Assembly (NCBI GenBank): GCA_045597125.1
Contig: JAZODR010000052.1
Coordinates: 34,947 to 98,946, forward strand
DNA length: 64,000 nt
Reading direction: 5' to 3'
DNA from: Eubacteriales bacterium
Lineage (GTDB): Bacteria > Bacillota > Clostridia > Oscillospirales > SIG627
Made by a program: the position numbers and the translations under genes. This document shows positions 3,609 through 62,217 of the stretch, piece by piece. The notes under the pieces were generated by a model. It ran no database searches. It saw only the letters and a program-made list of their open reading frames with translations, and was not told where the DNA came from. Position 1 is the first letter of the stretch. Each line of letters begins with the position of its first letter.

Positions 3609-3700
3609 GGAAAGATGGCTGAGCTGGTCTAAGGCGCACGACTGGAAATCGTGTAGTGGCTAATACCCACTCCAGGGTTCGAATCCCTGTCTTTCCGCCA
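3609..3700 (+). tRNA. tRNA-Ser (anticodon GGA), encoded CCA
   Basis: The acceptor GGAAAGA pairs with TCTTTCC. Also present: a CT-GGA-AA anticodon loop, a long variable arm, a GGTTCGAATCC T-arm and a 3' CCA. Confidence 0.9.
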
Positions 3701-22036: not shown

Positions 22037-22340
22037 AAGCAGGATACAAAATAAGATCGCGCACCCTTTCTCGAAAAACAAGTACGCCCGCTTCTTCTCT
22101 GCGCGGCTCAAATTAGGCACCCTCGTGGCACACCAAAAAATCCGCTTAATGCTGCTTGGTTCCCCACCTGACATGATTCACGGCATTCGATTGCACAAGA
22201 CCCGACTCTCAACGCCTAGCAAAGCAAGGCTGCGACATCCCCATCCCCCTCAAAAGTGAATTCTCCCCCTCTGTAGCGGATTGAGGGTACAAGGCACCGC
22301 TAACTCCCCGGATAGCGCGACCTTATTTTGTATCCTGCTT
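22037..22340 (-). ncRNA. ffs: SRP RNA (large Bacillus-type scRNA/ffs) including a flanking precursor stalk
   Basis: On the minus strand: the Alu-domain motif GGGGAGTTAGCGGTGCCTTGTACC, and the domain IV motif CATGTCAGGTGGGGAACCAAGCAGCATTAAGCGG (compare GUCAGGUCCGGAAGGAAGCAGC). It sits directly upstream of dnaX as in B. subtilis. The mature core is about 22063..22314. Confidence 0.85.
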
Positions 22341-34224: not shown

Positions 34225-35142
34225 CTATTTTAACGATTTTAAATCGTAAGGAGTTGATTGATAAACAAAATAATTCAACCAATTGATAAACAATAAGCTC
34301 CCGTGAGCTCTCCAATTTACAATAGGACCTTGGTCAGGATCATTGTTTCGATAATAATTCTCAGGAAGCGCAGTGCCGATTCCTGCAGATATATCCCTTC
34401 GATATTCCTCGTCCAATGTCAAAGGATCATATTCCGCATGTCCCATAATAAAAAACTGTCTTCCACCGTTTTGAGAAACAATGTGAACGCCCGCTCGTTC
34501 CGAAGAAGCAAGAACCTTCAATTCAGGTACCGTTTCTATCTCCTCGCGCTTAACAGTAGTATATCGGGAATGAGGCACAAAGAATTCATTGTCAAAACCG
34601 CGAAGCAACATGGAAGTAGGATGATCAGCGGTATGAGAGAAAACGCCGAACAGTTTTTCACTCATTCTGTATTTTTTGATGCCGTAGTGATAATACAAGC
34701 CCGCCTGCGCACCCCAACAAATATGCATAACGCTATGGACGTGGGATTTACTCCATTCCATAATCGTACAAAGTTCGGGCCAATAGTCAACCTCTTCAAA
34801 TTCCTTCAATTCAACGGGTGCACCTGTGATGATCATCCCATCGTAATTTTCGTTTTTGATATCATCAAAGGTCTTATAGAAGGCGAGAAGATGTTCCTGA
34901 GTTGTATTTTGTGATTGATGCGTTGCAGTTCGTATCAAAGTTAATTCAATCTGCAAAGGAGTATTTCCCAAAACTCTTGAAATTTGAGTTTCGGTTTCAA
35001 TCTTCTTCGGCATCAAATTTAAAAGCAAGATGCGTAATGGACGAATATCCTGCGTGATCGCCCGCGTTTCGGTCATTACGAAGATGTTCTCTTGGGCAAG
35101 TGTCTGAACTGCAGGTAAATCATTTGGGATTTTAATTGGCAT
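34225..35142 (-). CDS. metA: homoserine O-acyltransferase MetA
   Basis: MPIKIP..LPA...L..E.IF.M, LNLMP.K..TE.Q, CWGAQA motifs; 305 aa. Confidence 0.9.
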
Positions 35143-47642: not shown

Positions 47643-48919
47643 TTTTTATCCTCCGAGCGAACAATTGCACTTTTCGCGTGAGCAGTTAAGCCTTCTTTTC
47701 TTGCAAAGTATGCAACATCTTGTGCAACAGAATTCAAAGCCGATTCAGAAAAATAAGTATACTGCATTTTTTTAACAAAATCATCCACGGAGAGAGGGCT
47801 GGAAAAACGCGCCGTTCCGCCGGTTGGTAAAGTATGATTAGGACCTGCAAGATAATCTCCCAAAGCCTCGGGACAATTTCTGCCGAGAAAAACAGAGCCT
47901 GCATGGCGAATCCGGTCCAAATAATCAAAAGGATTATCCACGCAAAGCTCCAGATGCTCCGGAGCAATCTCATTTGAAATCCCAATGGCTTCATGCAAAT
48001 CAGAAACCACAATAATTTTTCCGTTATCATCAATTGACGCTCTTGCAATTTCAGCGCGTTCCAAAAGCGGAATTTGTTTTTCCACTTCTGCCTGCACCTG
48101 TTCTGCCAATTGAATGGAGCTGGTAACCAAAACCGCACTGGCGAGCTTATCATGCTCAGCTTGGGACAATAAATCCGAAGCCAAATGCACGGGATTGCTC
48201 TTCTCATCTGCAATGATCAAAATTTCACTGGGGCCGGCAATCATATCAATGGAAACAACACCGAAAACTTGCTTTTTCGCTTCAGCAACGAAAGCGTTGC
48301 CCGGACCTACAATTTTATCAACTCGCGGAATCGTTTCCGTTCCGTAAGCTAAGGCTGCAATTGCTTGCGCGCCACCGACTTTAAAAATTCGGTCAACACC
48401 TGCAACAGATGCGGCTGCAAGAATAACAGGATTAATTTTTCCATCTTTACCGGGAGGAGTAACCATTACAACTTCCGGACAGCCGGCAATCTTTGCGGGA
48501 ATCGCATTCATTAAAACAGAAGACGGGTAAGAAGCAGTTCCGCCGGGAACGTAAAGACCTGCTCGTTCTACAGGCATAATTTTCTGTCCCATGACAACTC
48601 CGTTGTCACGATTTAAAATAAAACTGTTCCGAACCTGCTTTTCGTGAAACAGACGGATGTTTTCTGCCGCAACTTCCAAAATTCGCAAAAACTGAGGCTC
48701 CGTTTGAGCAAGCGCCGATTCAATTTCTTCACGGGAAACTTCCAGCGAAGAAAGTTTTGCCCCGTCAAATTTTTCACAATAAGAAAACAGAGCAAAATCG
48801 CCGTTTTTACGAACGTTTGCAATGATATCCGCTACAATTGACTCTACATCAAACTTGGGCTGAACACGAGAAAAGATCTCAGCAGAAGAAACCTTGTCAT
48901 TCTTCAATATGCGAATCAT
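47639..48919 (-). CDS. hisD: histidinol dehydrogenase HisD
   Basis: GLYVPGGTA.YPSSVLM, AGPSE, QAEHD, and a C-terminal EGL.AH motif. Confidence 0.92.
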   Translation of the reverse strand: MIRILKNDKVSSAEIFSRVQPKFDVESIVADIIANVRKNGDFALFSYCEKFDGAKLSSLEVSREEIESALAQTEPQFLRILEVAAENIRLFHEKQVRNSFILNRDNGVVMGQKIMPVERAGLYVPGGTASYPSSVLMNAIPAKIAGCPEVVMVTPPGKDGKINPVILAAASVAGVDRIFKVGGAQAIAALAYGTETIPRVDKIVGPGNAFVAEAKKQVFGVVSIDMIAGPSEILIIADEKSNPVHLASDLLSQAEHDKLASAVLVTSSIQLAEQVQAEVEKQIPLLERAEIARASIDDNGKIIVVSDLHEAIGISNEIAPEHLELCVDNPFDYLDRIRHAGSVFLGRNCPEALGDYLAGPNHTLPTGGTARFSSPLSVDDFVKKMQYTYFSESALNSVAQDVAYFARKEGLTAHAKSAIVRSEDKK

Positions 48920-49545
48920 TTTTGCTCCTCCAATTGTTGAGAAAGACTTGTCAAAATCTTTCGGATTGCATCATTTTTAAACTTAAAACCGGATTTATTT
49001 GCAATCAAGCGTGTACTGATAGGAACGATATCTTCAAACACCTCAAGATTGTTTTCTTTTAAAGTCTTTCCCGTTTCCACGATGTCAACAATAACGTCTG
49101 TAAGACCTAAAATCGGTGCAATTTCAATGGAACCGTTTAAATGAATAATATCAATATCTCTACCTTTTTTGAAGTAATAATCTTTTGCAATATTCGAAAA
49201 TTTCGTTGCAACCTTCAATGTTTTGCGAATATCATCTCGAAAATCCACAGGCGCGGCAACTGCCATTTTGCAAACACCGGTTTTCAAATCCAAAAGTTCA
49301 TATACATCCGGATTATATTCCAGAAGAATATCTTTTCCTGCAACTCCCAGATCTGCAGCACCACGTTCAACGTAAATAGCCACATCGGACGGCTTTACCC
49401 AAAAATAGCGGACACCACATTCTTCATTTTCGAAAATCAGCTTGCGGGTATTTTCCATTACCTGAGGACATTCAAAGCCTGCCTTCTCGAACATGGTATA
49501 AACACGCTCTCCCAGTCTTCCTTTCGGGAGAGCAATATTAAGCAT
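48916..49545 (-). CDS. hisG: ATP phosphoribosyltransferase, short form HisG
   Basis: About 209 aa short HisG (LNIALPKGRL, DIV.TG.TL). The ATG at 49545 overlaps the hisZ stop. The TTG at 49554 is an alternative start. Confidence 0.88.
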   Translation of the reverse strand: MLNIALPKGRLGERVYTMFEKAGFECPQVMENTRKLIFENEECGVRYFWVKPSDVAIYVERGAADLGVAGKDILLEYNPDVYELLDLKTGVCKMAVAAPVDFRDDIRKTLKVATKFSNIAKDYYFKKGRDIDIIHLNGSIEIAPILGLTDVIVDIVETGKTLKENNLEVFEDIVPISTRLIANKSGFKFKNDAIRKILTSLSQQLEEQK

Positions 49546-50659
49546 TTCTTTCAAGAAGCTCCACCCCGCTTTCCGAAATTTTCCACAATTCTTTAAACTT
49601 GATTTTAGACGGAATACTTCTCTGCGCCATTACAGACTTTCCCTCTAAAATCAATTTCTTCAATACAAGATCTACCTCAGAGAAAAGAACGTTGGGACTA
49701 TACACCACAACGGAATCAACGTCATATTCCCTCTTTTCAATTAATAAATCTTCCATCAAATCCAGATAAACGGCAAAACCGATAGCCCCGGCATTTCGAT
49801 CCATTTTTTTCATCAAACCGTCATAACGACCGCCGGAAAGAACTGCAGACGGAATGCCATTTATAAATCCTTTGAAAACGATTCCGTTATAATAATCAAC
49901 ACCGTTGACGATGGAAAAATCAATTCGAAGCATCTTTTCAAACCCGCTTTCGCAAAGATTCTTGCAAAGCGATTCAAATGATGCAAGTTCCCCATCGTTT
50001 ACTTTTCCTTCCAGCAATGTTCTGACCTTAGGCAAAACCAGAGCGGGAGAACCGTAAATCTGAACAAGCTCATTCAAAACATCAATGTCTTCGGAATTCA
50101 CTCCCGCAGAAACGCAAATTCGTTCCAAATCATGAGCATTTTTTTCGCCGATTGCGAAAAGAACCTCTTTTTTGATAGAATCTGCGATTCCAAAAGAAGC
50201 GAGAAGCTGGGTTAAGAGACCAAAATCCGATATATCAAGAATAACATCATCGGAAAGCACAGAAAGACTTTTGGCAGCCAGACTCAGCACTTCAAACAAG
50301 GAGTAATCGTCCACCAATCCCATACACTCCACGCCAAGCTGCATAATTTCTTTAAAAGAATTTGTCCCGCTGGAAACGCGATACACATTTTCATTGTAAT
50401 ATACTTTATCCAGCAAACCTTCACTCGATCTGAAATTTTTAATGATTGACAATGTAACATCAGGTTTTAAGGCTAAAAGCTTCCCATTTGTATCCGTAAA
50501 GGTGATAATACTGTCTGAAATCAAAAAATCTTTGTTTCTCACATAAAGATCATATTCCTCGAATTTGCTCATTTTAAATTGAGCATATCCGTACTGTTCA
50601 TATAAACAGCGCAGGCGATTGATCACAAGTTCTTCTTTTCGCAAACTCGTTGTATTCAT
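49538..50659 (-). CDS. hisZ: ATP phosphoribosyltransferase regulatory subunit HisZ
   Basis: 373 aa HisRS-paralogue fold without an anticodon-binding domain, directly upstream of short-form hisG. Confidence 0.8.
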   Translation of the reverse strand: MNTTSLRKEELVINRLRCLYEQYGYAQFKMSKFEEYDLYVRNKDFLISDSIITFTDTNGKLLALKPDVTLSIIKNFRSSEGLLDKVYYNENVYRVSSGTNSFKEIMQLGVECMGLVDDYSLFEVLSLAAKSLSVLSDDVILDISDFGLLTQLLASFGIADSIKKEVLFAIGEKNAHDLERICVSAGVNSEDIDVLNELVQIYGSPALVLPKVRTLLEGKVNDGELASFESLCKNLCESGFEKMLRIDFSIVNGVDYYNGIVFKGFINGIPSAVLSGGRYDGLMKKMDRNAGAIGFAVYLDLMEDLLIEKREYDVDSVVVYSPNVLFSEVDLVLKKLILEGKSVMAQRSIPSKIKFKELWKISESGVELLERNA

Positions 50660-50949
50660 TTTTGTTCATCCTCAATTTTCTCCAAAACCGCATGATATCC
50701 ACCACTTCCGTAGGAAAGGCATTTATTTACACGGCTAATCGTTGCGGTGCTAACACCCGTTTTCTTATTGATTTCCTGATAATTGGTTCCATTTTTCAAC
50801 AGAATTGCAATTTCAAGTCTTTGTGACATATCCAAAATCTCTTTAATCGTACATAAATCTTCCAAAAAAGAATAACACTCTTCCGGTGTTTTCAATTCTG
50901 CAAAAACCTTCATCAACCGATCAGTAAATTCATTATGCCAACTTGCCAT
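50656..50949 (-). CDS. YerC/YecD family TrpR-like protein (candidate histidine regulon repressor)
   Basis: 97 aa. F..L.T.EE...F..DL.T..E...M.QR......L, Y..I...TG.S.ATISRV motif. The stop overlaps the hisZ start (ATGA). Confidence 0.8.
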   Translation of the reverse strand: MASWHNEFTDRLMKVFAELKTPEECYSFLEDLCTIKEILDMSQRLEIAILLKNGTNYQEINKKTGVSTATISRVNKCLSYGSGGYHAVLEKIEDEQK

Positions 50950-51025: not shown

Positions 51026-51069
51026 CTAAAAATAATGATGCAAAGGTTTTTCTTCCTTTGCATCATTAT
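51026..51069 (-). terminator. intrinsic terminator after the TIM-barrel/ligase fusion gene
   Basis: ataatgatgcaaagg-(8 nt)-cctttgcatcattat, followed on the minus strand by TTTTT. Confidence 0.8.
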
Positions 51070-51073
51070 CGAA

Positions 51074-53575
51074 TTATTTCAAGCCAAGCTTTTCAACTGC
51101 AGCTTCACGCATTTTATATTTCAAAATTTTGCCGGCTGCATTCATGGGAAATTGTTCCACAAATTCTACGTAGCGCGGAACTTTATGACGTGCCATACTG
51201 GCAGCCACAAAGGCTTTCATTTCCTCTTCGGACATACTCTCACCTTCTTTTAAGATGATACAAGCCATAATTTCTTCACCATACTGCTTATCGGGCACAC
51301 CGATTACCTGAACATCACGAACTTTAGGATTGGTATAAATAAATTCCTCAATTTCCTTAGGATAGATATTTTCTCCGCCTCGGATAATCATATCCTTTAA
51401 GCGTCCGGTAATCAGATAATTCCCTTCGGGTGTGCGACATGCAAGATCCCCGGTATGAAGCCATCCTTCGTCGTCAATGGTGGAAGCCGTGGCACCGGGC
51501 ATTTTGTAATAGCCCTTCATCAAATTATAGCCGCGGGCAACAAATTCACCGTTTACACCATCGGGGCAATCTAGTCCCGTTTCGGGATCTACAATCTTGC
51601 ACTCGACATTTGCAAAGGCGCTGCCCACTGTTTCGGTACGAACCTGCAGAGAATCATAGTAGCTGCTCATCGTACATCCCGGACTTGCTTCGGTTTGACC
51701 GTAAACGGAAACAATCTCTTTCATATTCATAATGTCGGCTGCTTTTTTCATCAAATCGGCAGGACAGTTAGCACCTGCCATAATACCGGTTCGAATATAA
51801 GAAAAATCCGTCTTTGAAAAATCAGGATGCTGCATCATTGCAATGAACATTGTAGGAACACCATTAAAGGTGGTAATATGTTCATTGTGGACACATGCAA
51901 GGGCAGGTTTCGGTGAAAAATACGGCAACGGGAACATCGTAGCGCCGTGGGTCATCGCAGCAGTCATAGAAAGAACCATACCGAAGCAATGGAACATAGG
52001 AACCTGAATCATCATTCGATCGGCCGTGGAAAGATCCATATGGTCTCCGATATATTTACCGTTGTTTACAACGTTGTAATGGGTCAACATAACACCCTTG
52101 GGGAAACCTGTGGTTCCTGAGGTGTACTGCATATTACAAACGTCATTCTTATCTACAGCAGCAGCCATACGGCGTACCTCTTCCAAGGGAACCTGACCGG
52201 CTCTTTCAAGAGACTCTTGCCAGGTCATACAGCCCTTTTGCTTAAATCCGACTGTAATGACATTGCGCAAAAAAGGAAGTCTTCTGGCATGAAGAGATGC
52301 GCCCGCCTTCAAAGACTTAAGTTCAGGACAAAGCTCTGCAATAATCTTTCCGTAATGCGTATCTTTCGCGCCTTCTGTCATAATTAAAGTATGAGTATCA
52401 GACTGGCGAAGCAAATACTCAGCTTCGTGGATTTTATAAGCGGTGTTCACCGTTACAAGAACAGCACCAATCTTTACGGTTGCCCAGAATGCGATAAACC
52501 ATTGAGGAACATTGGATGCCCAAACGGCAACATGAGTTCCCGCTTTTACACCCAATGCAATCAAACTTCTTGCAAAGGTATCCACATCATCACGGAACTG
52601 ACTATAAGTTCTGGTATAATCAAGAGTCGTATATTTAAAAGCATATTGATCCGGAAATTCTTCAACCATCCGATCCAGAACATCAGAAAAAGTAGCATCA
52701 ATCAAAAGATCCTTTTTCCAAACGAATTTACCCGTACGCGCGCGATTATAATACAATGTCTTCCGATTCTGAGAAGGATCACCAAACTGGTTCATAAAAC
52801 TGACAAACTGAGAAAAAATGATCTCCATATCATCAAGCTCGGTACACCAAGAAGGATCCCATACCAATGATACAAATCCGTCATAATTTACGGATCGAAG
52901 GGCAAGGATAATCTCTTTTATTGGAAGATCTCCCTCGCCTGCCAAGCAATATTCAACACCATTTTCAGTTCTTCTGGCATCATTGAACTGAACATGGCGA
53001 ACATAAGCACCAAGGTTTTTAATAACCTCTTCGGGGGTTTCGCCTTTTCCAAAATAAGCTGCTGACATCTGCCATAAAGCGGCAAAATGATCACTTGCAA
53101 ACCGATCTAACAAGTTGCGCAGAACAGAAGTGTCGCTAAAAGGGCCTGTTGTTTCCAAAAGCAACGTAACGGAAGCATCCTTAGCCTTTTCTAAAACTCT
53201 ATTAATGAGTTCGTAAACAGTTTCAACAGCGGCATCGGTGCTCTCTGCATCGTTGGCGCGCAAACGAATATAAGGGATATGGAGATTGGATGCAATACGA
53301 ATGCAGTTCTCAATCTCATCAATTGCTTTGTCCTGTAGGTTAACAGAGCCCACATCAGTAATGGTATCAATACAGGGAATTCTCAGATTCTTCTCATAAA
53401 GCTTGCGAAGAGTGGCCCCGGCGGTATAATCGTGAAATGCACCGTCTTTGTCCGTAAAGAGGCGATTATAAATATTATGAAGTTCGATTCCCTGAAAACG
53501 AAGTTCTTGGGCAATGTTACAAAATTCATCAAAATTGTTATGATGCCAACCCTTTGTAGAAAAGGAAAGTTTCAT
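51074..53575 (-). CDS. fusion protein: xylose-isomerase-like TIM barrel (sugar phosphate isomerase/epimerase family) + AMP-forming acyl-CoA ligase
   Basis: About 833 aa. The N-terminal 270 aa or so have TIM-barrel blocks (GIELH, LLLETTG, HVQFND). The rest has ligase motifs: YTSGTTGFPKGVMLTH, YGQTE, HTGDL, GRLKDMIIRGGENIYP, GKI.K. The GGAGG RBS lies inside the upstream gene's end, and the ATG is 1 nt after its stop. Confidence 0.8.
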   Translation of the reverse strand: MKLSFSTKGWHHNNFDEFCNIAQELRFQGIELHNIYNRLFTDKDGAFHDYTAGATLRKLYEKNLRIPCIDTITDVGSVNLQDKAIDEIENCIRIASNLHIPYIRLRANDAESTDAAVETVYELINRVLEKAKDASVTLLLETTGPFSDTSVLRNLLDRFASDHFAALWQMSAAYFGKGETPEEVIKNLGAYVRHVQFNDARRTENGVEYCLAGEGDLPIKEIILALRSVNYDGFVSLVWDPSWCTELDDMEIIFSQFVSFMNQFGDPSQNRKTLYYNRARTGKFVWKKDLLIDATFSDVLDRMVEEFPDQYAFKYTTLDYTRTYSQFRDDVDTFARSLIALGVKAGTHVAVWASNVPQWFIAFWATVKIGAVLVTVNTAYKIHEAEYLLRQSDTHTLIMTEGAKDTHYGKIIAELCPELKSLKAGASLHARRLPFLRNVITVGFKQKGCMTWQESLERAGQVPLEEVRRMAAAVDKNDVCNMQYTSGTTGFPKGVMLTHYNVVNNGKYIGDHMDLSTADRMMIQVPMFHCFGMVLSMTAAMTHGATMFPLPYFSPKPALACVHNEHITTFNGVPTMFIAMMQHPDFSKTDFSYIRTGIMAGANCPADLMKKAADIMNMKEIVSVYGQTEASPGCTMSSYYDSLQVRTETVGSAFANVECKIVDPETGLDCPDGVNGEFVARGYNLMKGYYKMPGATASTIDDEGWLHTGDLACRTPEGNYLITGRLKDMIIRGGENIYPKEIEEFIYTNPKVRDVQVIGVPDKQYGEEIMACIILKEGESMSEEEMKAFVAASMARHKVPRYVEFVEQFPMNAAGKILKYKMREAAVEKLGLK

Positions 53576-53576
53576 T

Positions 53577-54959
53577 TTATGCCTCCTCGTAAACAATTTT
53601 ATTCACAGCATTCAAGTAAGCACGAATGCTGGCGCCGATGATATCGGTAGATATACCATTGCCCGAATAAAGTTTGCCCCCGGCACGAAGTTTTACAAGA
53701 GCAGAGCCCATTGCTTCTTTGCCTTCTGTAACAGATTGGATCTGAAAATCATCCAATTCATAGTGATGTCCAATGATTTGATCAATCGCACGGAATGCTG
53801 CGTCAACGGGACCGTCACCAATACAAACCCCCTGCAATACGCTTTCTTCTTTTTCCAAAGTAATTTGGGCGCTTGCGGAGATGATATTGCCATTATTTAT
53901 CATATAGTTAACAAGTTTAAAGGTTGCGGGAACCTGCAAAGCTACACTTGCAACAATGGCATCCAATTCCTTAGAACCAACGGATTTTTTAGCGGCTACA
54001 CGAAGAAACTCGTCAAAAACCCGCTTTTGATCTTCTTCAGAAAGATCGTAACCGAGTTTTGCAACTACGGCAATCACAGTAGCTTGATCGTCGTTCTGGC
54101 TTAAATAGGAGCCAACTTCGTCACAGGTTGCTACAGTCATTGCGGAACGCTCATTTTTAGCATTGTTTGCAATCCAATTGATTTGCTTTAAAATGCGGAA
54201 CAATTCAGTCTGATTGATTTTCGCAAAATAGGAATAACGGTTTCCGCAGTTCTTTAGAATAGAAGCAATGTCTGCCAAAGGCGCATTGATACCGATGACA
54301 TCCGCTTTAATGCAAGATGCACCGCTACGGAGCGCCAAAACAGACGCCGCGCAAGCCAAGCCGTTTGCATTTTCGCAGCGAACACTAACAGGAACAGAAA
54401 GGCCCTCGGAATAAGTCTGAACAAAAGCGGCAAAATCATCGGGAAGCATTTCAGCAGCGCTATCACACAAAGAAATCGAGGTTGCACCGGACTCTACTGC
54501 AATCTGAATAGCCTTTTTTAAAAAGTCACATTCTGCACGGGTAGCATCCACAGCACAAAATTCAACATCTTCCACAGAAGCTTTTGCCATACGAATTGCT
54601 TCGCTGATCCATAAAAGCATAGGGTCAGCCTTCTTTTTTGCAATATACTCCATTCCAATCGGCGAAACAGGAACCTCAATGCGAATTCGGCCGTTTTTCA
54701 CGGCAGACAAGGCGGAAATCGCATCAGTAACGCTATCAATATTACTGCCGGCAGCTACAGAAATAATACTATTCTTCACAAAGGAAGCGGCAGTTCGCAC
54801 GAAAAGACAGTCCGCCTTGGTATTGGAAATCTCGGGAAGTTCAATAATATCAACGCAAAGTTTATCCAGTTGACGCGCAATTTCAAGCTTTTCCTTAAAG
54901 CCAAAAACACCCTCTTCTGTACAAAGTGTTGTATCAGCAATCATAATCTGTTTCATCAT
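53577..54959 (-). CDS. 2-isopropylmalate synthase (LeuA) paralogue with degenerate catalytic site and an intact LeuA regulatory domain
   Basis: 460 aa. The DTTLRDGEQ block reads DTTLCTEEG and HxH(N/D)D.G reads RCENANG. The C-terminal GDGPVDAAFRAI and GNGISTDIIGASIRAYLNAVN match the LeuA allosteric/dimerisation domain. Confidence 0.7.
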   Translation of the reverse strand: MMKQIMIADTTLCTEEGVFGFKEKLEIARQLDKLCVDIIELPEISNTKADCLFVRTAASFVKNSIISVAAGSNIDSVTDAISALSAVKNGRIRIEVPVSPIGMEYIAKKKADPMLLWISEAIRMAKASVEDVEFCAVDATRAECDFLKKAIQIAVESGATSISLCDSAAEMLPDDFAAFVQTYSEGLSVPVSVRCENANGLACAASVLALRSGASCIKADVIGINAPLADIASILKNCGNRYSYFAKINQTELFRILKQINWIANNAKNERSAMTVATCDEVGSYLSQNDDQATVIAVVAKLGYDLSEEDQKRVFDEFLRVAAKKSVGSKELDAIVASVALQVPATFKLVNYMINNGNIISASAQITLEKEESVLQGVCIGDGPVDAAFRAIDQIIGHHYELDDFQIQSVTEGKEAMGSALVKLRAGGKLYSGNGISTDIIGASIRAYLNAVNKIVYEEA

Positions 54960-54988
54960 AAAACCCTCTCATTTTCGAAATTCCTCAA

Positions 54989-55240
54989 GAAAAAAATCCC
55001 TGAGGTAAAAACCTCAGGGACGAAAAAATCCGCGGTACCACCCTGTTTGCCGTCAAGCGGCCTTCTCTACGAGTTCTAACAAACCCTTTGCCATGATAAC
55101 GGGGCAAGCCGTAACCGCTTACTATCATTCAGCGACTCTGCTCCGGAATGAGAATCTAATCCTCGCATTTTGCTGCCTTGCACCAACCGACAGTTCTCTG
55201 TAAAATGCCTTGAGAAAAAGACGATTTCCTTCATCGCATT
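54989..55240 (-). promoter_or_regulatory. T-box riboswitch leader, specifier CUC (tRNA-Leu)
   Basis: Minus strand: a K-turn TGCGATGAA...GGAGCA, a GGTGCAA distal loop, the specifier context ATT-CTC-A-TTCC, the T-box AACAGGGTGGTACCGCGG, and the terminator tccctgaggt-tttt-acctcaggga plus a T-run at 54989-55020. Confidence 0.85.
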
Positions 55241-55256
55241 TAAAAAACTTAAATGG

Positions 55257-55286
55257 ATTATATCACAGTAAAAACAAGTTTGTCAA
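55257..55286 (-). promoter_or_regulatory. sigma-A-like promoter of the Leu T-box leader
   Basis: Minus strand: TTGACA, 18 nt spacer, TATAAT. It starts only 16 nt after the stop of the oxidoreductase gamma gene. Confidence 0.6.
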
Positions 55287-55301: not shown

Positions 55302-55838
55302 TTATTTGTATTCTGCACCAAGTGTCATTGCCTTCAGGTTTACATCAATCATATCGGCACGCTTTGCAGAAATAACTTTGGTAAGAGTCTTCTTAACCTG
55401 CTCCTCATCAAACTCTCCGAGGACCTTGAAAATCTTACCCATCAAAATCATATTTGCAAGAGTCGCAAAGCCATTTTCACCTGCAAGTCTGGTTGCGGGT
55501 ACAGGGAAAACCTGAACGTCGGTGCGCTTCACTTCTCTCTCTACCAAGGAAGAGTCGTAGAAGATCATACCACCGGGAACAACAGAATCCTCAAACTTAT
55601 CCAAAGAAGGAAGATTCATTGCTACTAAAATATCAGGCTTGGAAACAATGGGCGAGCCAACGGGCTCATCGCTGATGATGACGCTGCAGCTTGCAGTACC
55701 GCCACGCATTTCAGGACCATAGGAAGGAAGCCAGCTTACTTGCTTATCCTCAATCAATCCTTTGTATGCAAGCATTTTACCGGTAAACAGAATACCCTGT
55801 CCGCCAAAACCGGAAAGCAAAAACTGTTTTGCGCTCAT
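55302..55838 (-). CDS. 2-oxoacid:ferredoxin oxidoreductase gamma subunit
   Basis: 178 aa. GFGGQG...G..LA motif; start overlaps the beta stop (ATGA). Confidence 0.88.
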
Positions 55839-56590
55839 TTGTTTTCCTCCTTTGCACTACGATCCTTATACACACCAAGAGGATAATAAGGAATCATCTT
55901 CTCGTCAATCCATTTCAGAGCATTTTGAGGAGTCATACCCCAGTTGGTGGGACAAGAAGAAAGAACCTCTACCAAAGAGAAGCCTTTTCCATCAATCTGA
56001 TTCTGAAAAGCCTTTTTAATTGCCTTCTTGGCATTCTTAATATTCTTAACACTGTTAACGGTAACGCGTTCCAAATATTCGGGACCATCCAACTCAGAGA
56101 GCATCTCGCATACACGAATGGGGAAACCGCAAGCATTGGTATCTCTGCCATAGGGAGAGGTCTGTGTGACCTGTCCGGGAAGAGAGGTAGGTGCCATCTG
56201 ACCACCGGTCATACCGTAGATAGCATTATTAATAAAGATAATGGTGATGTTCTCATTTCTTGCGGCAGAATGTACGGTTTCAGCCATACCAATAGAAGCC
56301 AGATCTCCATCACCCTGATAAGTAAATACAATGTGATTTTCAGGATCTGCGCGCTTTACACCGGTAGCTACTGCAGGAGCTCTACCGTGAGCAGCCTCAA
56401 TCATATCACAGTTAAAATAGTCATAAGCCATAACGGAGCAACCAACGGGGGCAACACCAATGGTCTTACCTTCAATACCAAGCTCGTCAATTACTTCGGC
56501 AACCAAGCGGTGAACAATACCGTGGGTACAGCCGGGACAATAATGCATCGGCACTTCAGCCATTGCATGGGGTCTATCAAATACTACCAT
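55835..56590 (-). CDS. 2-oxoacid:ferredoxin oxidoreductase beta (TPP-binding) subunit
   Basis: 251 aa. CPGC.H, and GDGD....G TPP/Mg motif. Confidence 0.88.
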   Translation of the reverse strand: MVVFDRPHAMAEVPMHYCPGCTHGIVHRLVAEVIDELGIEGKTIGVAPVGCSVMAYDYFNCDMIEAAHGRAPAVATGVKRADPENHIVFTYQGDGDLASIGMAETVHSAARNENITIIFINNAIYGMTGGQMAPTSLPGQVTQTSPYGRDTNACGFPIRVCEMLSELDGPEYLERVTVNSVKNIKNAKKAIKKAFQNQIDGKGFSLVEVLSSCPTNWGMTPQNALKWIDEKMIPYYPLGVYKDRSAKEENK

Positions 56591-56600
56591 AGTTCACACC

Positions 56601-57653
56601 TCACTTCTGCGCACTTCTGATGGCTTCCAAAACCTGCTCGGGGGAAGGAATCATACCGCCAACACGGTTGCAAAGGCTTACGGGAACTTTGCACTCGGTT
56701 GCAAGTCTTACATCTTCAATCATCTGACCCATGGAAAGCTCAACAGAAATAATGGATTTTACTTTTTCAGCAGCTTTTGCAAAGGGAGCCTTGGGGAAAG
56801 GCCACAAAGTAATGGGACGGATCATACCAACGCGAATACCCTCTTTGCGTGCTTCGTTGATGGCATTTTTCGCTACACGAGCGGCAATACCGAATGCTGC
56901 AATACAAATCTCTGCATCATCCATCAAATACTCTTCGTACATGGTTTCATTCTCTTCAATGATGCGATAGCGGTCATAGCGAGAAAAATTAAATTTTTCC
57001 AATGCCTCGGGAGCAAGAAACAAAGAGTTTACGATATTGTGCTCTCTCTGCATTTTGGTGCCGGTGGTAGCCCAAGGCTTTGCAGGAGTTTCCTTCACAT
57101 CAAAATCAAGGGAAACAGGCTCCATCATCTGACCCATAGTACCATCAGCAAGGATCATTGTGGTCATACGATAGGTATCGGCAAGCTCAAAGCCCTTCAC
57201 AGTAAGCTCTGCCATTTCCTGAACGGAACTGGGAGCAAGAACGATCATATGGAAGTCACCGTGTCCTGCACCACGAGTTGCCTGGAAATAGTCAGACTGG
57301 CTAGGCTGAATTCCACCAAGGCCGGGACCGCCACGCTGTACGTTTACAACCAATGCAGGAAGATCTGCACCGGCAAGATAAGAAAGTCCCTCGCCCTTCA
57401 AAGAAATTCCGGGGCTGGAAGAGGAAGTCATAACACGCTTACCGGTAGAAGCAACGCCGTAAACCATATTAATCGCGGCAATTTCACTTTCTGCCTGAAG
57501 GAAGGTACCGCCGATTTTGGGCATTTTCTTTGCCATATATGCGGCAACTTCAGTCTGGGGAGTAATAGGATAACCAAAATAGTGACGACAACCGGCAAGA
57601 ATTGCAGCTTCTGCAATTGCTTCGTTGCCCTTCATCAAAATCTTTTCCGACAT
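56601..57653 (-). CDS. 2-oxoacid:ferredoxin oxidoreductase alpha subunit (VorB/KorA-like)
   Basis: About 350 aa. MKGNEA.AEAA..AG....FGYPITPQ.E motif. The ATG at 57653 has an RBS; the GTG at 57662 is an alternative start. Confidence 0.88.
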   Translation of the reverse strand: MSEKILMKGNEAIAEAAILAGCRHYFGYPITPQTEVAAYMAKKMPKIGGTFLQAESEIAAINMVYGVASTGKRVMTSSSSPGISLKGEGLSYLAGADLPALVVNVQRGGPGLGGIQPSQSDYFQATRGAGHGDFHMIVLAPSSVQEMAELTVKGFELADTYRMTTMILADGTMGQMMEPVSLDFDVKETPAKPWATTGTKMQREHNIVNSLFLAPEALEKFNFSRYDRYRIIEENETMYEEYLMDDAEICIAAFGIAARVAKNAINEARKEGIRVGMIRPITLWPFPKAPFAKAAEKVKSIISVELSMGQMIEDVRLATECKVPVSLCNRVGGMIPSPEQVLEAIRSAQK

Positions 57654-57658
57654 CTTCT

Positions 57659-57865
57659 TCACCTCTCAACCTTGATTACGCAATCGGGGCACATCTGCGC
57701 ACAAAATGCACATCCTACGCAATCCTCCTGCTTTGTAATTTCAGCAGGATGGTGACCTTTCTTATTGATCTTATCAGGTGCAAGTCTGATCAGCTTTTTG
57801 GGACAAGCATCAACGCAAAGACCGCAACCCTTACAAAAATCAGTATTGAATGTAAGTTTTGCCAT
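57659..57865 (-). CDS. 4Fe-4S dicluster ferredoxin (oxidoreductase delta subunit)
   Basis: 68 aa with CKGCGLCVDACP and CVGCAFCAQMCP motifs. Confidence 0.88.
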   Translation of the reverse strand: MAKLTFNTDFCKGCGLCVDACPKKLIRLAPDKINKKGHHPAEITKQEDCVGCAFCAQMCPDCVIKVER

Positions 57866-57887: not shown

Positions 57888-58547
57888 TCAATAATACTTT
57901 TTTTGCAGCTTCAGCGGATATAGATCCGAAATCTTTCCCCGCAAAGTTTCATAAAGTTCTTCCCGCACGGAAGTCATAACCACAGGCAAGTGGCAAAGCT
58001 TTGCAAAACTTTTTGCTTTTTCAACTGTGGAAAGCACATCCTCGGGAGTAGTTTCTTCTCCTAAATTGGAGTTATTTACAATTCCTGTAAATGAAATACC
58101 TGCAGCCTGTTCCATTTCCTTCATTACCTCCAGCATCGACTGATTGTCTCTGGTAAGAGGTCTAAAAAAATTCACCACCAGCAGCATTTCATAATTGTTC
58201 TCTTCCACAATGGAAGGTGCCAATCTGCCAAGCGCCAAAGCGCCTCTGTCATCTCCGCCAATATCCAAAACAAAATGACTTTCTACATCATCCATCACCG
58301 CATACATTCCCTGAGGCAATGCGGGAACATCTACATTGGTATTGGCAAATTCCGAGGAAATCAAACGAATCCCTGCCTTTTGAAAATCCTCAAGGCTGTC
58401 CTTGGTACGAAAATACGGATTCACAATATCCAAATCACAAACGGATACCTTCTTCCCTTCCCGTTTCAATGAGAACGCAAGATTCACGGCAATATTGGTT
58501 TTACCGCTGCCGTAGTGACCCGCTAAAATGGTAATTCTTTTATCCAT
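57888..58547 (-). CDS. P-loop (SIMIBI-like) ATPase of unknown function
   Basis: About 219 aa. Walker A GHYGSGKTN, then DLD and DIGGDD acidic motifs. The ATG overlaps the ilvE stop (ATGGATAA). Confidence 0.6.
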   Translation of the reverse strand: MDKRITILAGHYGSGKTNIAVNLAFSLKREGKKVSVCDLDIVNPYFRTKDSLEDFQKAGIRLISSEFANTNVDVPALPQGMYAVMDDVESHFVLDIGGDDRGALALGRLAPSIVEENNYEMLLVVNFFRPLTRDNQSMLEVMKEMEQAAGISFTGIVNNSNLGEETTPEDVLSTVEKAKSFAKLCHLPVVMTSVREELYETLRGKISDLYPLKLQKKYY

Positions 58548-59619
58548 TGCAGACCTTGACGGTCCAACCGTTTGCATCCTCGATTTTTCCCCACTGAATA
58601 CCGGTCAGATTATCATAAAGCTTCTGCGTAAGCTGGCCAATCTGATTATCACAAACCACGTACTCCTTGCCCTGATAAAAGAGCTGACCAATGGGAGAAA
58701 CAACGGCAGCAGTGCCTGTTCCCCAAGCTTCCTCGAGTTTGCCGTTTGCGGCAGCCTCAAAGAGCTCGTCCACAGAAATGAGTCTTTCTTCAACGGTGTA
58801 GCCCCAAGAACGGAGAAGTTCTACGCAGCTTTTTCTGGTAATACCGGGAAGGACAGAACCGGTCAGTTCGGGAGTGACGATTTTGCCATCAATCTTGAAC
58901 ATAACGTTCATTGCGCCGACTTCTTCAATGTACTTTCTTTCAACACCGTCCAGCCAAAGAACCTGTGTATAACCGTTCTTTTCAGCCCGTTCACCTGCCC
59001 GAAGAGATGCAGCATAGTTACCGCCGCACTTTGCGTAGCCGGTACCGCCTCTTACCGCACGGACGTCCTGAGACTCAATAGCAATCTTAACGGGATTGAT
59101 ACCCTCAGCGTAGTAAGCGCCAACAGGGGAGCAAATCACAGCTAGGGTAGCATTTTTAACGGCGTGAACGCCAAGGTGAGGGTCATTGCCGTACATAAAA
59201 GGACGAATATAAAGGCTGGTACCTTCGGAATGAGGAACCCAATCCTTCTCAAGCTCCACCAAGGTCTTCAAAATATCAAGAGTGCCTTCTTCATCCACTT
59301 GGGGAAGGCAAAGGCGCTCAGCGCTATTGTTCAATCTTTTGATGTTCTCCATCGGACGGAACATAGAAATTTCACCGTTTGCTTTGCGATATGCCTTCAT
59401 ACCTTCAAAAATTTCAACACCGTAATGAAAAACGGTTGATGCAGGATGAAGCGGAATGGGACCGAAGGGAACGATTCTGGCATCATGCCAACCTTTCTCC
59501 TGATTGTAATCCATTAAGAACATATGGTCGGTAAAAATTTTACCGAATCCGAGCTTAGATTCATCAACAGGCTTCTCCTTGGGAGAAGTGGTTTTGGTGA
59601 TAGAAATGGAATATTTCAT
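58540..59619 (-). CDS. ilvE: branched-chain amino acid aminotransferase (class IV)
   Basis: About 359 aa. FGK.FTDHM, E.GMKAY, R.G.G..K.GGNYA, E..GAMN.F, GITR motifs. Start set at MKYSIS (AAGGAG RBS). Confidence 0.88.
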   Translation of the reverse strand: MKYSISITKTTSPKEKPVDESKLGFGKIFTDHMFLMDYNQEKGWHDARIVPFGPIPLHPASTVFHYGVEIFEGMKAYRKANGEISMFRPMENIKRLNNSAERLCLPQVDEEGTLDILKTLVELEKDWVPHSEGTSLYIRPFMYGNDPHLGVHAVKNATLAVICSPVGAYYAEGINPVKIAIESQDVRAVRGGTGYAKCGGNYAASLRAGERAEKNGYTQVLWLDGVERKYIEEVGAMNVMFKIDGKIVTPELTGSVLPGITRKSCVELLRSWGYTVEERLISVDELFEAAANGKLEEAWGTGTAAVVSPIGQLFYQGKEYVVCDNQIGQLTQKLYDNLTGIQWGKIEDANGWTVKVCNG

Positions 59620-59632
59620 AATAATTCTCCTT

Positions 59633-61921
59633 TTAAAGCTTATTTCTTTGAATTTTACCGCTGACTGTCTTAGGCAATTCATCGCGGAAGACAACCAGTC
59701 TTGGATATTTGTAAGGGGCGGTGTGCTCCTTCACATAATTCTGAATTTCCTTTTTCAGTTCATCGGTACCTTCCGTCCCCTTGGTTAAAACGATGCTCGC
59801 TTTAACAATCTGCCCTCTGACCTCATCAGGAGCAGCGGATACACCGCATTCCAAAACATAAGGAAGTTCCATAATAACGCTTTCAATCTCAAAAGGACCG
59901 ATACGATAACCAGAGGATTTTATTACGTCATCCGCCCTGCCTACGTACCAGAAGAAGCCGTCTTCATCACGCCAAGCAAGGTCGCCGGTATGGTAATAAC
60001 CATCTCGAATCGCCTCATTCGTCTTTTCTTCATCGTTGTAGTATCCAACAAAGAGACCGCAAGGAACGCCGTTTTTCAGATTGATAACAACCTCACCGGG
60101 TTCACCGTTTGCAACGGCATTTCCATCAGCATCAACGAGTTCAACGGCATAAATCGGAGCAGGCTTACCCATAGAGCCAATCTTGTGCGAAGCGCCGATC
60201 ATATTGCCGACAATCATAGTACTTTCCGTCTGACCAAAACCCTCTAAAATCTGAAGTCCGGTGGCCTTTTCAAATTGACGATAAACCTCAGGATTGAGCG
60301 CTTCTCCAGCCGTAGTCATATGACGAACGGAAGACAAATCATATTGTGAAATATCCTGCTTAATCATCATACGAAGCATGGTGGGAGGAGCGCAAAATGT
60401 GGTAATTTGATGTTTGGCAAACATCGGTAGGATCTGGGAAGCGTCAAAACGATCAAAATCATACACGAAAATTGCTGCCTCGCAAAGCCACTGACCATAA
60501 AGTTTACCCCACATAGATTTTGCCCAACCGGTATCGGAAATCGTAAAGTGTAATCCATCGGGATCAACGCAATGCCAATATTTGGCAGTATGGAAATGTC
60601 CAAGAGGATACTTGTGATTATGAGCCGCGATTTTGGGGTAACCGGAAGTACCTGATGTAAAGAACATCAAAAGAAGATCATCGCCGCAGGGAGAATCCTC
60701 AGTACGATTAAAATGGGAACTGTAAAGGGTATATTCTTCGTCAAAAGAACGCCAACCTTCCCTTTTTCCGTTTACAATCAATTTTACGGAAAGTTCGGGA
60801 TGGTTTGCCGCTGCACGGTCAACATGTTCTGCAATATCACCGTCTGCGGTGCAAACAATGCCTTTAACCCCCGCAGCCCCAAAACGATAATCCAAATCGT
60901 GTTCAAGAAGTTGATTCGGAGCAGGAATTGCAACAGCACCGAGCTTATTTAACCCAAGCATTGCAAACCAAAACTGATAATGGCGCTTCAAGATCAGCAT
61001 AACCTTGTCGCCTTTTTTGATGCCAAGAGATTTAAAATAATTTGCACACTGGTTAGAAGCCTTCTTAATATCTTTAAAGGTAAATCTTCTCTCTGTAAGA
61101 TCCTTGGCGATATGAAGCATTGCCAATTTATTAGGCTCTCGCGCGGCAAGCTCATCAATTAAATCAAATGCGAAATTGAATTTCTCCGTATTTTTAAACT
61201 GAATAGAAAGCGGTGTTCCCTTTTCATTTTCCACAACGTCAATGAAATTCTGATAAACACGAGGTTTGGTATCCTTCTTGCCAACTATGCCGGAAGCAAT
61301 TGCCTTAGGCGTAGTAAGCTCGGGAATCGGCTCACCGGTAGGATTTAAAACAATGGCATAGAATACACAATCCTCGCCTTGAACGGCAATCATACCATGG
61401 GGAGCGGAACTATCATAATAAATGCTGTCACCCGGACCGAGAACTTCTCTGTGCTCTCCGATTTGTACCATCAAATGACCTTCAATGACGATATCACATT
61501 CCTGCCCGGAGTGGGTCGTCAATTCAATATCACGATTCTGCGCCGCTTCATCATAACGAATCTTAACATACAAAGGCTCTGCAATACGGTTACGAAAAGC
61601 GTATGCCATATTGTAGTAGGTCATACCGTGTGCATCGGTAATTTCCTGCCCTTCTCCACTTCTGGTCAAGGTATAGGACTTCAAATTCGGACTATGGCCT
61701 TCTATAATATCCGTTACATTAACGTTCAATGCTAAAGAACAACGATAAATAAAGGCAAAATTCAAATCGCTTCTTCCGTTTTCGCAATCCAGATATTCTT
61801 CCACCGAAACATCGGTTTTTATCGCCATCTCTTCAGGGGTAAGCCCTTGAATCTGACGAAGCTCGCGAATACGCGCAGCCATTTCCTGAATTTTAAATTC
61901 AAGTCCTGTAATCTTATTCAT
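59633..61921 (-). CDS. fusion protein: XRE-type HTH + cupin domain + AMP-forming (medium/short-chain type) acyl-CoA synthetase
   Basis: About 762 aa. N-terminal IRELRQIQGLTPEEMA...VS.YE.G. HTH, a cupin core (HSGQE.D.V.EG....IG.......GDS.Y..S...H). The ligase motifs are FTSGTSGYPK, GFGQTE, HTGD, GRADDVIKSSGYRIGPFEIES and SGKIQR. Start set at MNKITG (GGAG RBS). Confidence 0.85.
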   Translation of the reverse strand: MNKITGLEFKIQEMAARIRELRQIQGLTPEEMAIKTDVSVEEYLDCENGRSDLNFAFIYRCSLALNVNVTDIIEGHSPNLKSYTLTRSGEGQEITDAHGMTYYNMAYAFRNRIAEPLYVKIRYDEAAQNRDIELTTHSGQECDIVIEGHLMVQIGEHREVLGPGDSIYYDSSAPHGMIAVQGEDCVFYAIVLNPTGEPIPELTTPKAIASGIVGKKDTKPRVYQNFIDVVENEKGTPLSIQFKNTEKFNFAFDLIDELAAREPNKLAMLHIAKDLTERRFTFKDIKKASNQCANYFKSLGIKKGDKVMLILKRHYQFWFAMLGLNKLGAVAIPAPNQLLEHDLDYRFGAAGVKGIVCTADGDIAEHVDRAAANHPELSVKLIVNGKREGWRSFDEEYTLYSSHFNRTEDSPCGDDLLLMFFTSGTSGYPKIAAHNHKYPLGHFHTAKYWHCVDPDGLHFTISDTGWAKSMWGKLYGQWLCEAAIFVYDFDRFDASQILPMFAKHQITTFCAPPTMLRMMIKQDISQYDLSSVRHMTTAGEALNPEVYRQFEKATGLQILEGFGQTESTMIVGNMIGASHKIGSMGKPAPIYAVELVDADGNAVANGEPGEVVINLKNGVPCGLFVGYYNDEEKTNEAIRDGYYHTGDLAWRDEDGFFWYVGRADDVIKSSGYRIGPFEIESVIMELPYVLECGVSAAPDEVRGQIVKASIVLTKGTEGTDELKKEIQNYVKEHTAPYKYPRLVVFRDELPKTVSGKIQRNKL

Positions 61922-61940
61922 ACAAACTCCATATCCGGGA

Positions 61941-62205
61941 CAAAAAAGCACTCGTCCCAAAAGTCTTTACTTTGAGACGAGCGCATAATTTGTAACACCC
62001 GCGGTACCACTCAAATTGCAGATAAACTGCCACTCAGGATCCAACAACCCGTATGCATTTACGCAGCAATCACGGAGAGGTTCTACTCCCTTTCGGTTTC
62101 TTCCTCTCGGCTCGGAAGCTACCAACAAAGCATCAATCCTTAGTGACTCGCACCGTCCGTCACTTCTCTGAAAGGTCTTTGCATCGCCCTCTTCTTCAAC
62201 GCCTT
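61941..62205 (-). promoter_or_regulatory. T-box riboswitch leader, probable specifier GUA (tRNA-Val); alternative register GGU
   Basis: Minus strand: a K-turn GGCGTTGAA...CGAGCC, an AG bay CAGAGAAG, a distal loop GGTGCGA, the specifier context TTG-GTA-G-CTTC, the T-box TTTGAGTGGTACCGCGGG, and the terminator ctcgtctcaaagt-aaag-acttttgggacgag plus a T-run at 61941-61981. Confidence 0.8.
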
Positions 62206-62217
62206 TAAAGATAATTT

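Follow-up and report, generated by a model that had tools for sequence, protein, structure and literature searches.

What does a bacterium do with a leucine-regulated copy of 2-isopropylmalate synthase (IPMS, LeuA) that has lost the residues needed for catalysis? This question is raised by a locus in a 64,000-nucleotide (nt) stretch of contig JAZODR010000052.1 from a Eubacteriales bacterium of the order Oscillospirales (positions 34,947 to 98,946, forward strand); the whole stretch is called the window here. On its minus strand, a T-box leader with a leucine specifier precedes an intact open reading frame (ORF) for a LeuA-like protein. The following gene encodes an AMP-forming acyl-coenzyme A (CoA) ligase fused to a triosephosphate isomerase-type (TIM) domain. 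With moderate confidence, we propose that the surrounding cluster makes branched-chain amino acids from branched-chain fatty acids by reductive carboxylation, and that the dead LeuA serves as a HisZ-like leucine sensor of an isovalerate-activating ligase. The module consists of the following features.

55257–55286, minus strand: sigma-70-type promoter of the Leu operon (TTGACA and TATAAT spaced by 18 nt, with an upstream TG; 12 of 12 hexamer matches)
55013–55243, minus strand: Leu-specific T-box leader (Rfam RF00230)
54986–55021, minus strand: intrinsic terminator of the T-box (hairpin at 54996–55021 with an 11-bp stem including 6 GC pairs, then TTTTTTT)
53577–54959, minus strand: LeuA-like pseudoenzyme, intact ORF, 460 amino acids (Pfam HMGL-like and LeuA_dimer)
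54210–54959, minus strand: its DRE-TIM-type barrel without the catalytic set, residues 1–250 (from alignments to solved IPMS)
53976–54209, minus strand: its shortened linker, residues 251–328, in which subdomain I with HxSGxHQ is deleted relative to genuine LeuAs
53580–53975, minus strand: its LeuA allosteric (leucine-binding/dimerization) domain, residues 329–460 (PF08502 positions 4–130 of 131, E = 9.8e-31)
51074–53575, minus strand: fusion protein of 833 amino acids, proposed isovalerate-CoA ligase (Pfam AP_endonuc_2, AMP-binding and AMP-binding_C)
52721–53575, minus strand: xylose-isomerase-like TIM domain of the fusion (AP_endonuc_2, residues 22–238, E = 9.1e-20)
51074–52720, minus strand: AMP-forming acyl-CoA ligase part of the fusion (AMP-binding, E = 5.4e-92; AMP-binding_C, E = 2.1e-17)

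The leader is a canonical member of the T-box family. It covers positions 1 to 219 of the 219-position RF00230 model with 109.9 bits, above the gathering score of 93 (E = 2.2e-23), and the promoter lies directly 5' of its start. The specifier codon CUC (Leu) at 55150–55152 adjoins the base of Stem I in the loop GAUU-CUC-A-UUCC/GGAGC, where it is followed by the conserved purine (CUC-A spans 55149–55152). The T-box core reads AAACAGGGUGGUACCGCG at 55031–55048, and the T-box sequence with its UGGN bulge reads GGGUGGUACCGCG at 55031–55043. In the Rfam alignment, the terminator hairpin overlaps the 3' half of the T-box helix, making terminator and antiterminator mutually exclusive. Binding of uncharged tRNA-Leu and read-through of the terminator are predicted from this arrangement.

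The ORF has the architecture of LeuA, with an HMGL-like TIM barrel (residues 16–250, E = 2.3e-29) and a C-terminal LeuA_dimer domain (residues 329–455). The genuine LeuA P0380 is 31% identical to it overall and aligns without gaps in the regulatory domain. For a residue-level comparison, the window protein was aligned to the solved IPMS structures 3RMJ, 3EWB and 3EEG. In the Mycobacterium tuberculosis enzyme (MtIPMS, MtLeuA), the metal ligands are Asp81, His285 and His287, with chain-B residues around His379 nearby (PMC5498780). Substitutions of R80, E218 and other active-site residues are listed as abolishing MtIPMS activity in a review, which also places leucine binding in the C-terminal regulatory domain (PMC10464499). 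In the window protein, DTTLRDGEQ has become DTTLCTEE-G, with Cys13 in place of the substrate Arg and Thr14 in place of the metal Asp. HCHND has become RCENA, with Arg194 and Glu196 at the positions of the two metal His residues, so that the Asp/His/His triad is absent. Val137 aligns with the Glu of the EDA motif of 3RMJ. Some residues of the GERAGN region are missing from the alignment and the remainder are substituted, and subdomain I with HxSGxHQ is lacking. All 20 of the 20 NCBIfam models for LeuA, CimA, NifV and HCS scored below their cut-offs, the best LeuA equivalog reaching 267.9 bits against 532. The protein is a homologue of LeuA and not a member of the enzyme family; the case for a dead enzyme is solid.

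An AlphaFold2 model of the protein (pLDDT 78.8) was mostly above 90 in the barrel blocks and below 50 at residues 268–283. The modelled barrel superposed on truncated IPMS structures with a root-mean-square deviation of 1.9 to 2.9 Å. A fold search with the full model matched 3RMJ, 3EWB, 3EEG, MtLeuA 1SR9 and the Leu-bound 3FIG, with MtLeuA matched over its full length. Searches of PDB sequences with the C-terminal domain (phmmer) and with the family profile did not reach 1SR9, 3FIG or 3F6G.

The initial annotation, made from the letters of the window, had called a Leu (CUC) T-box in front of a LeuA paralogue with lost catalytic blocks, and both calls hold. The protein strings that it quoted are all present in the translation of 53577–54959, and the profile alignment that it suggested as a check matched HMGL-like and LeuA_dimer with changed catalytic columns.

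Is this one aberrant gene or a family? LeuA-like relatives are carried by at least 589 species (GTDB contigs, one genome per species). From these confirmed relatives we kept 80 related loci, all from metagenome-assembled genomes of Clostridia and labelled Acutalibacteraceae, Ruminococcus, Oscillospiraceae or Eubacteriales. In many of the locus records, the source named is the rumen or the ruminant gut (of deer, goat, sheep, yak, buffalo or cattle). The protein database holds more than 120 clusters at 90% identity, with proteins of about 459 residues that are 63 to 88% identical to the window protein; the only name given to them, where they are named at all, is "hypothetical protein". A library clustered at 50% identity adds more than 100 further clusters (453 to 497 residues) with identities down to 31%, and genuine LeuAs rank only below these. 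The dead LeuA is a large unnamed family of gut and rumen Oscillospirales.

Catalytic loss extends across the family. Among 106 diverse representatives, clustered at 50% identity, neither the first nor the second metal His is retained in any (0/106 each); 9 retain the metal Asp and 34 the substrate Arg. All 106 share the deletion of the linker subdomain with HxSGxHQ, and 105 that of GERAGN. Eight residues occur at position 13 (R, K, C, A, Q, S, V and L), and the former active-site columns have no common replacement. That the replacing residues are lineage specific argues against a new conserved active site. We considered a new Cys-based metal or iron-sulfur (Fe-S) site, since Cys13, Cys135, Cys165 and Cys195 are kept in close relatives. 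It was rejected on the family-wide variability of position 13; Cys195, moreover, is ancestral, because it aligns with the central Cys between both His residues of HCH in real LeuAs. The protein P0375 was likewise tried as an evolutionary intermediate and dropped: it looks partly degenerate in the alignment, but its place in a canonical ilvN-ilvC-leuA-cimA/leuA-leuB-ilvD-ilvB operon marks it as an ordinary enzyme.

The regulatory domain has been kept. In the same representatives, every position of GDGP(I/V)DA and the first four positions of STDII are 81 to 100% conserved, and the last position of STDII is Ile in 63%. Mean identity to the window protein across the loci is 80% in the regulatory domain and 54% in the barrel. 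Pairwise ratios of nonsynonymous to synonymous substitution rates (dN/dS) between related loci were 0.05 to 0.17 for the barrel, 0.00 to 0.17 for the linker and 0.00 to 0.07 for the regulatory domain. Both domains of the LeuA-like protein are under purifying selection. A leuA pseudogene decaying behind a working T-box would account for the loss of all catalytic residues, but the ORF is intact and of near-constant length (about 455 to 475 residues) in hundreds of species, dN/dS is far below 1 in every domain, and the loci preserve both the Shine-Dalgarno motif and the coupling to the gene that follows. This reading is refuted, and we leave it practically no weight.

The leucine specifier is a constant of these loci as well. 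An nhmmer profile seeded with the Leu T-box of the window identified 101 T-boxes in related loci. Of the 69 T-boxes in front of a LeuA-like gene, all have a leucine specifier (CUC in 66, CUG in 3), and the specifier is also CUC in distant LeuA-like loci. The same specifier register reads Leu, Val and Ile in paralogous leaders. In two loci (L069, 5326–5610, and L070, 5311–5590), one CUC T-box precedes the gene order ATPase-VOR-ilvE-LeuA-like-fusion and does not stand directly before the LeuA-like gene; the entire reductive-carboxylation set described below is thus under leucine control there. Another locus (L084, 6400–6626) has an extra T-box with specifier AUC (Ile), located 3' of an Amidohydro_2 gene that follows a distant LeuA-like/fusion pair; the contig stops before the regulated gene.

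Which protein does the dead LeuA serve? The gene for the fusion protein starts 1 nt past the LeuA-like stop codon, and GGAGG lies within the last LeuA-like codons. In 78 of the 80 loci the next gene 3' encodes the same fusion; the other two contigs end before reaching it. The gap between the two genes is −4 to +6 nt in 74/78 loci, and a Shine-Dalgarno-like motif is present in 77/78. Among five distant lineages whose contigs reach beyond the LeuA-like gene, the fusion follows in four. The pairing is kept at 31 to 40% identity (L081, L083, L084/85 and L089/90), and the Leu T-box, the dead LeuA and the coupled fusion stay together down to 31% identity. Gene linkage and translational coupling to the fusion are solid. 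One member of the family stands alone: P0373 in L082 (1287–2693, 34% identity) has no ligase fusion 3' of it, and no T-box was detected there. No genuine leuA was found near the module, either in the window or within 10 kb on either side in 86 loci.

These data also settle further points of the initial annotation. Its view that the C-terminal regulatory domain is well conserved and that the gene is no decaying pseudogene agrees with the family-wide columns and the dN/dS values, and the translational coupling that it proposed recurs across the loci. In the survey of co-occurrence that it suggested, fusion and Leu T-box accompany the protein even in distant relatives, with the solitary L082 member as the exception.

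Strict linkage and translational coupling would also fit a dead LeuA that is an obligate structural or activating subunit, needed for folding, oligomerization or activity of the fusion and doing no leucine sensing. In a variant, another ligand would be sensed (2-oxoisocaproate, isovalerate or CoA) and the C-terminal domain would be kept mainly for dimerization. The strong purifying selection on a barrel with variable catalytic columns points the same way, PF08502 is also the dimerization domain of LeuA, and HisZ both activates HisG and mediates its inhibition. However, the strongly conserved GDGP(I/V)DA and STDII motifs are common to leucine-regulated LeuA and go beyond what dimerization alone should need, and the leucine specifier in 69/69 of the T-boxes before LeuA-like genes marks leucine as the relevant signal. 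We regard a subunit without leucine sensing as unlikely.

The fusion partner has its own degenerate part. We set the columns of the Glu-Asp-His-Glu metal site of the TIM domain from weak alignments to 3DX5, 3WQO and 2ZDS together with the family consensus, so that their assignment is tentative; in these columns the window reads E-Q-Q-V. The window retains the first Glu (in the LLET motif), as does the family consensus. Across 284 fusion sequences, D-H-E occupies the tentatively assigned columns of Asp, His and second Glu in about 20% and N-H-V in about 50%, with Q-Q-V in the clade of the window, and most fusion TIM domains are without two or three of the four ligands. The domain looks like a second pseudoenzyme domain of the system, noncatalytic in most members, an assignment that we make tentatively. 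We found this TIM subfamily only as part of the fusion and nowhere outside it. The ligase domain is 89% conserved in close homologues, and the TIM domain diverges at roughly the pace of the LeuA-like barrel. When the loci are compared with the window, divergence of the barrel correlated with that of the TIM domain (r = 0.66) and hardly with that of the ligase domain (r = 0.14), which is weak evidence. Coupled divergence of barrel and TIM domain, together with the constraint on the barrel, is compatible with an interface.

The low dN/dS of the barrel could instead reflect a cryptic enzyme: a new reaction, independent of metal or relying on other ligands and needed in the leucine arm only, would take place in the remodelled barrel, either by itself or jointly with the fused TIM domain. 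Cys13, Asn197, Asn199 and Lys218 are conserved in close relatives, and the minority of TIM domains with D-H-E ligands would suit such a role. But the former active-site columns share no replacement family-wide, the acetyl-CoA/His-bearing subdomain is deleted in all members, and most TIM domains are missing the better part of their ligands. Nor is there a gap for a new reaction to fill, as the route from isovalerate through isovaleryl-CoA and 2-oxoisocaproate to leucine requires no extra step. A cryptic enzyme is in our view very unlikely.

Why would a CoA ligase need a leucine sensor? The genes 5' of the module offer an explanation, with an oxidoreductase, an aminotransferase and further ligases behind T-boxes for valine and, probably, isoleucine.

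55302–57865, minus strand: 2-oxoisovalerate:ferredoxin oxidoreductase (VOR) VorDABC (Pfam POR_N/PFOR_II, TPP_enzyme_C, POR and Fer4)
57659–57865, minus strand: VOR delta subunit
56601–57662, minus strand: VOR alpha subunit
55835–56590, minus strand: VOR beta subunit
55302–55838, minus strand: VOR gamma subunit
57888–58577, minus strand: ParA/MinD/Mrp-like P-loop ATPase (weak matches to the Fe-S carriers MrpORP and ApbC)
58540–59694, minus strand: branched-chain amino acid aminotransferase IlvE (NCBIfam PRK13357, 484 bits against a cut-off of 307); the true start is probably the ATG near 59619
59633–61960, minus strand: HTH_XRE, cupin and MbcS-like acyl-CoA ligase in one protein, proposed isobutyrate-CoA ligase (MbcS, 445 bits against a cut-off of 850)
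61970–62208, minus strand: second T-box, specifier GUA (Val), 5' of the HTH-cupin ligase (Rfam 80.3 bits, under the gathering score of 93, E = 7e-18, full model; nhmmer E = 5e-42)
62270–63985, minus strand: third AMP-forming ligase, cut by the window end (best model MbcS, 449 bits); by position probably the Ile-T-box paralogue, with its HTH-cupin part and leader beyond the window

VOR and IlvE are assigned by curated cut-offs, the VOR alpha subunit scoring 540 against 399 for NCBIfam VorB. The ligases are less sharply defined. The best NCBIfam match of the fusion is PRK12583, a generic subfamily, with 653.8 bits against a cut-off of 832, and the ligase falls into no substrate-specific curated family. 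T-boxes before the proximal HTH-cupin ligase have the specifier GUA or GUC (16 loci), and those before the distal one have AUC (Ile; 6 T-boxes). Perhaps the HTH-cupin module does for Val and Ile what the LeuA-like sensor would do for Leu; alternatively, it could turn the ligase into a BirA-like DNA-binding regulator.

VOR genes lie 5' of the LeuA-like/fusion module in 37/80 loci within the flank examined. Such loci usually also contain the ATPase, IlvE and HTH-cupin ligases, often including a second HTH-cupin ligase. In most of them IlvE is near the module; in L089/90 it is located just 3' of the fusion. The P-loop ATPase is kept between the Val ligase/IlvE and the VOR genes in most VOR-bearing loci and may assist in maturing the Fe-S-rich oxidoreductase.

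The frequency of VOR and IlvE as neighbours, and the L082 member without an adjoining ligase, would suit a leucine-binding regulator of another target, for instance VOR, IlvE, a transporter or a factor acting in transcription or translation, with the fusion adjacent through co-regulation only. Yet the fusion is the sole invariant neighbour: more than half of the loci are without VOR or IlvE in the examined flank and still carry the fusion within a few nucleotides of the LeuA-like gene. The TIM subfamily occurs only within the fusion, and barrel divergence follows the TIM domain and not the ligase, weak evidence as this is. Another target is, in our estimate, distinctly unlikely.

We now return to the dead LeuA as leucine sensor of the ligase, and to the pathway in which it would act. 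AMP-forming ligases drive acid activation, and T-boxes turn on with uncharged tRNA. Taken together, these two properties lead us to read the cluster as biosynthetic and not catabolic. The locus would be the leucine arm of a three-armed route from gut or rumen branched-chain fatty acids to branched-chain amino acids. First, an AMP-forming ligase would convert the acid to its acyl-CoA. Second, VorDABC, running reductively with reduced ferredoxin, would carboxylate the acyl-CoA to the 2-oxo acid, and third, IlvE would yield the amino acid. A separate T-box precedes each ligase (CUC for Leu, GUA for Val and AUC for Ile), so that uncharged tRNA would induce activation of the matching acid. This pathway assignment is well supported, and the conversion has a physiological precedent, as rumen microbes are established to carboxylate and then aminate isovalerate to leucine (PMC7356843). 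Isovalerate would be the substrate of the fusion ligase. Purified Staphylococcus aureus MbcS activates isobutyrate and 2-methylbutyrate and isovalerate only poorly (PMC10026030), which explains why leucine would have a different type of ligase and why the Val and Ile arms would have MbcS-like ones.

In the canonical pathway, the committed step catalysed by LeuA is doubly controlled, by attenuation and by leucine feedback through the regulatory domain. The leucine arm of the cluster may reproduce this scheme. The ligase would be co-made with the LeuA paralogue through translational coupling, and the paralogue would bind the ligase fusion as a HisZ-like noncatalytic subunit, probably via the largely ligand-less N-terminal TIM domain. 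Leucine occupancy of its regulatory domain would be relayed to the ligase, giving fast feedback inhibition. Control would thereby fall on the ATP-consuming committed ligase step, with dead-LeuA feedback as a second layer atop the T-box. With VorDABC, IlvE and the Val- and Ile-T-box ligases nearby, a leucine sensor for a CoA ligase makes sense. Tentatively, and with somewhat less confidence than an even balance would warrant, we go further and suggest a device of two pseudoenzymes, a dead-LeuA leucine sensor docked on the decaying TIM domain of an isovalerate-CoA ligase, in a cluster that would be the so far unassigned gene set for conversion of rumen branched-chain fatty acids to Leu, Val and Ile.

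Several observations weigh against the sensor reading. Leucine binding by the LeuA-like protein, its complex with the fusion and inhibition of the ligase are all steps that we infer. The leucine-pocket residues of MtLeuA could not be mapped onto the protein, since the solved regulatory domains have diverged beyond the reach of sequence searches and the fold search gives no residue mapping. Strong constraint on the dead barrel hints at a role beyond that of a passive scaffold. The substrate of the fusion ligase is assigned from context, its best subfamily being generic and below cut-off. P0373 does without an adjoining ligase, and no Rosetta-stone fusion of a LeuA-like protein to a ligase was found among the homologues listed. 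Finally, those fusion TIM domains that have the full D-H-E set (about one in five) would permit an extra enzymatic step in some lineages.

By analogy, HisZ, the catalytically dead HisRS paralogue that regulates the short-form ATP-phosphoribosyltransferase HisG, would be the nearest known system in working principle. Both are paralogues of an enzyme of the same amino acid, stripped of catalysis and encoded beside the enzyme that they serve, or would serve, and both would exert end-product feedback at the committed step, as we propose for the dead LeuA. A paralogue without catalysis that is under purifying selection and has a conserved linkage to its partner is what we found here. The dead LeuA differs in that it originates from LeuA and not from an aminoacyl-tRNA synthetase, its partner would be an adenylate-forming CoA ligase, and its complex and allostery are putative. 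Another difference is that its sensor domain was already allosteric in the parent enzyme.

Genuine LeuA (1SR9/3FIG of M. tuberculosis, 3RMJ of Neisseria meningitidis) shares the TIM barrel, helical linker and LeuA_dimer, the gapless regulatory domain at about 31% overall identity, and a Leu T-box in front. In contrast, the window protein lacks the Arg, the Asp/His/His set, GERAGN and subdomain I, and fails all curated cut-offs. It also stands outside an ilv-leu operon, in which the genuine LeuA P0375 is found, and is paired with a CoA ligase. The regulatory domain of CimA is the same PF08502-type domain and senses an end product, isoleucine. Here the ligand is presumably leucine, given the T-box specifier; CimA is an active enzyme, and its models match the window protein weakly.

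The leaders resemble known T-boxes of RF00230, which control genes for amino-acid biosynthesis and aminoacyl-tRNA synthetases in Firmicutes, in the Stem I specifier loop, the T-box sequence and the terminator/antiterminator pair. They differ in what they regulate, a pseudoenzyme and acyl-CoA ligases, with three paralogous leaders (Leu, Val and Ile) dividing one salvage pathway by substrate. The two HTH-cupin ligases score best with the model of MbcS, the short branched-chain acyl-CoA synthetase of S. aureus, whose preference for isobutyrate and 2-methylbutyrate fits their Val and Ile T-boxes (PMC10026030). The ligase of the leucine arm, however, belongs to another subfamily, is about 25% identical and carries a TIM domain; MbcS serves fatty-acid synthesis and not amino-acid synthesis, and the cluster ligases score under the MbcS cut-off. 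Reductive carboxylation in the rumen (isovalerate, isobutyrate and 2-methylbutyrate to Leu, Val and Ile) fits the ligases, VorDABC, IlvE and the ruminant-gut habitat of the metagenome-assembled genomes, but the literature searched describes that route physiologically. That literature yielded no account of the family, of the fusion or of the T-box-partitioned cluster; it misses most subscription journals, so this absence is not proof.

The remaining features of the window lie downstream of the module or apart from it.

51032–51069: palindromic hairpin after the fusion stop, separating the fusion from the his genes
50656–50949, minus strand: TrpR/YerC-like small protein
49538–50659, minus strand: likely hisZ, 3 kb downstream (best NCBIfam match hisZ, 190 bits against a cut-off of 272; hisS, 125 bits)
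48916–49554, minus strand: short-form hisG, adjoining hisZ, then the rest of the his operon
22057–22320, minus strand: large bacterial signal recognition particle RNA (168 bits)
3609–3697, plus strand: long-arm tRNA, anticodon GGA (Ser)

We considered the his operon as part of the unit and rejected this, since it follows the module in only two related loci (L002 and L071) and is set off by the hairpin. The initial annotation had pointed to a HisZ in the same window as a parallel to the dead LeuA. The gene's best match is indeed hisZ and it lies beside a short hisG, but its score stays under the model's cut-off. As a whole, the earlier interpretation is partly supported and largely right, its feedback-subunit proposal being the reading that we favour; it missed the pathway context and the loss of metal ligands in the TIM domain.

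If the sensor reading is true, an allosteric biosynthetic enzyme has been recycled whole, barrel included, as the sensor subunit for another enzyme that leads to the same end product. Such a case would be a parallel to HisZ with an independent origin, and it would place an adenylate-forming CoA ligase under amino-acid feedback. We know of no such ligase controlled by amino-acid feedback in this way. For genome annotation, there is a risk that a protein of at least 589 species is mis-called LeuA; counting the dead LeuA as LeuA leads to a false prediction of leucine prototrophy via the isopropylmalate route.

Many fibre-degrading ruminococci need isobutyrate, isovalerate and 2-methylbutyrate, and for about 60 years physiologists have known the rumen pathway by which branched-chain fatty acids become Leu, Val and Ile. 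The T-box specifiers pair one ligase with each acid and amino acid and put VorDABC and IlvE in a biosynthetic role. The old rumen pathway thereby becomes testable at the level of genes and predictable from genomes, and, if our reading is true, hundreds of Oscillospirales species of the gut carry its gene set.

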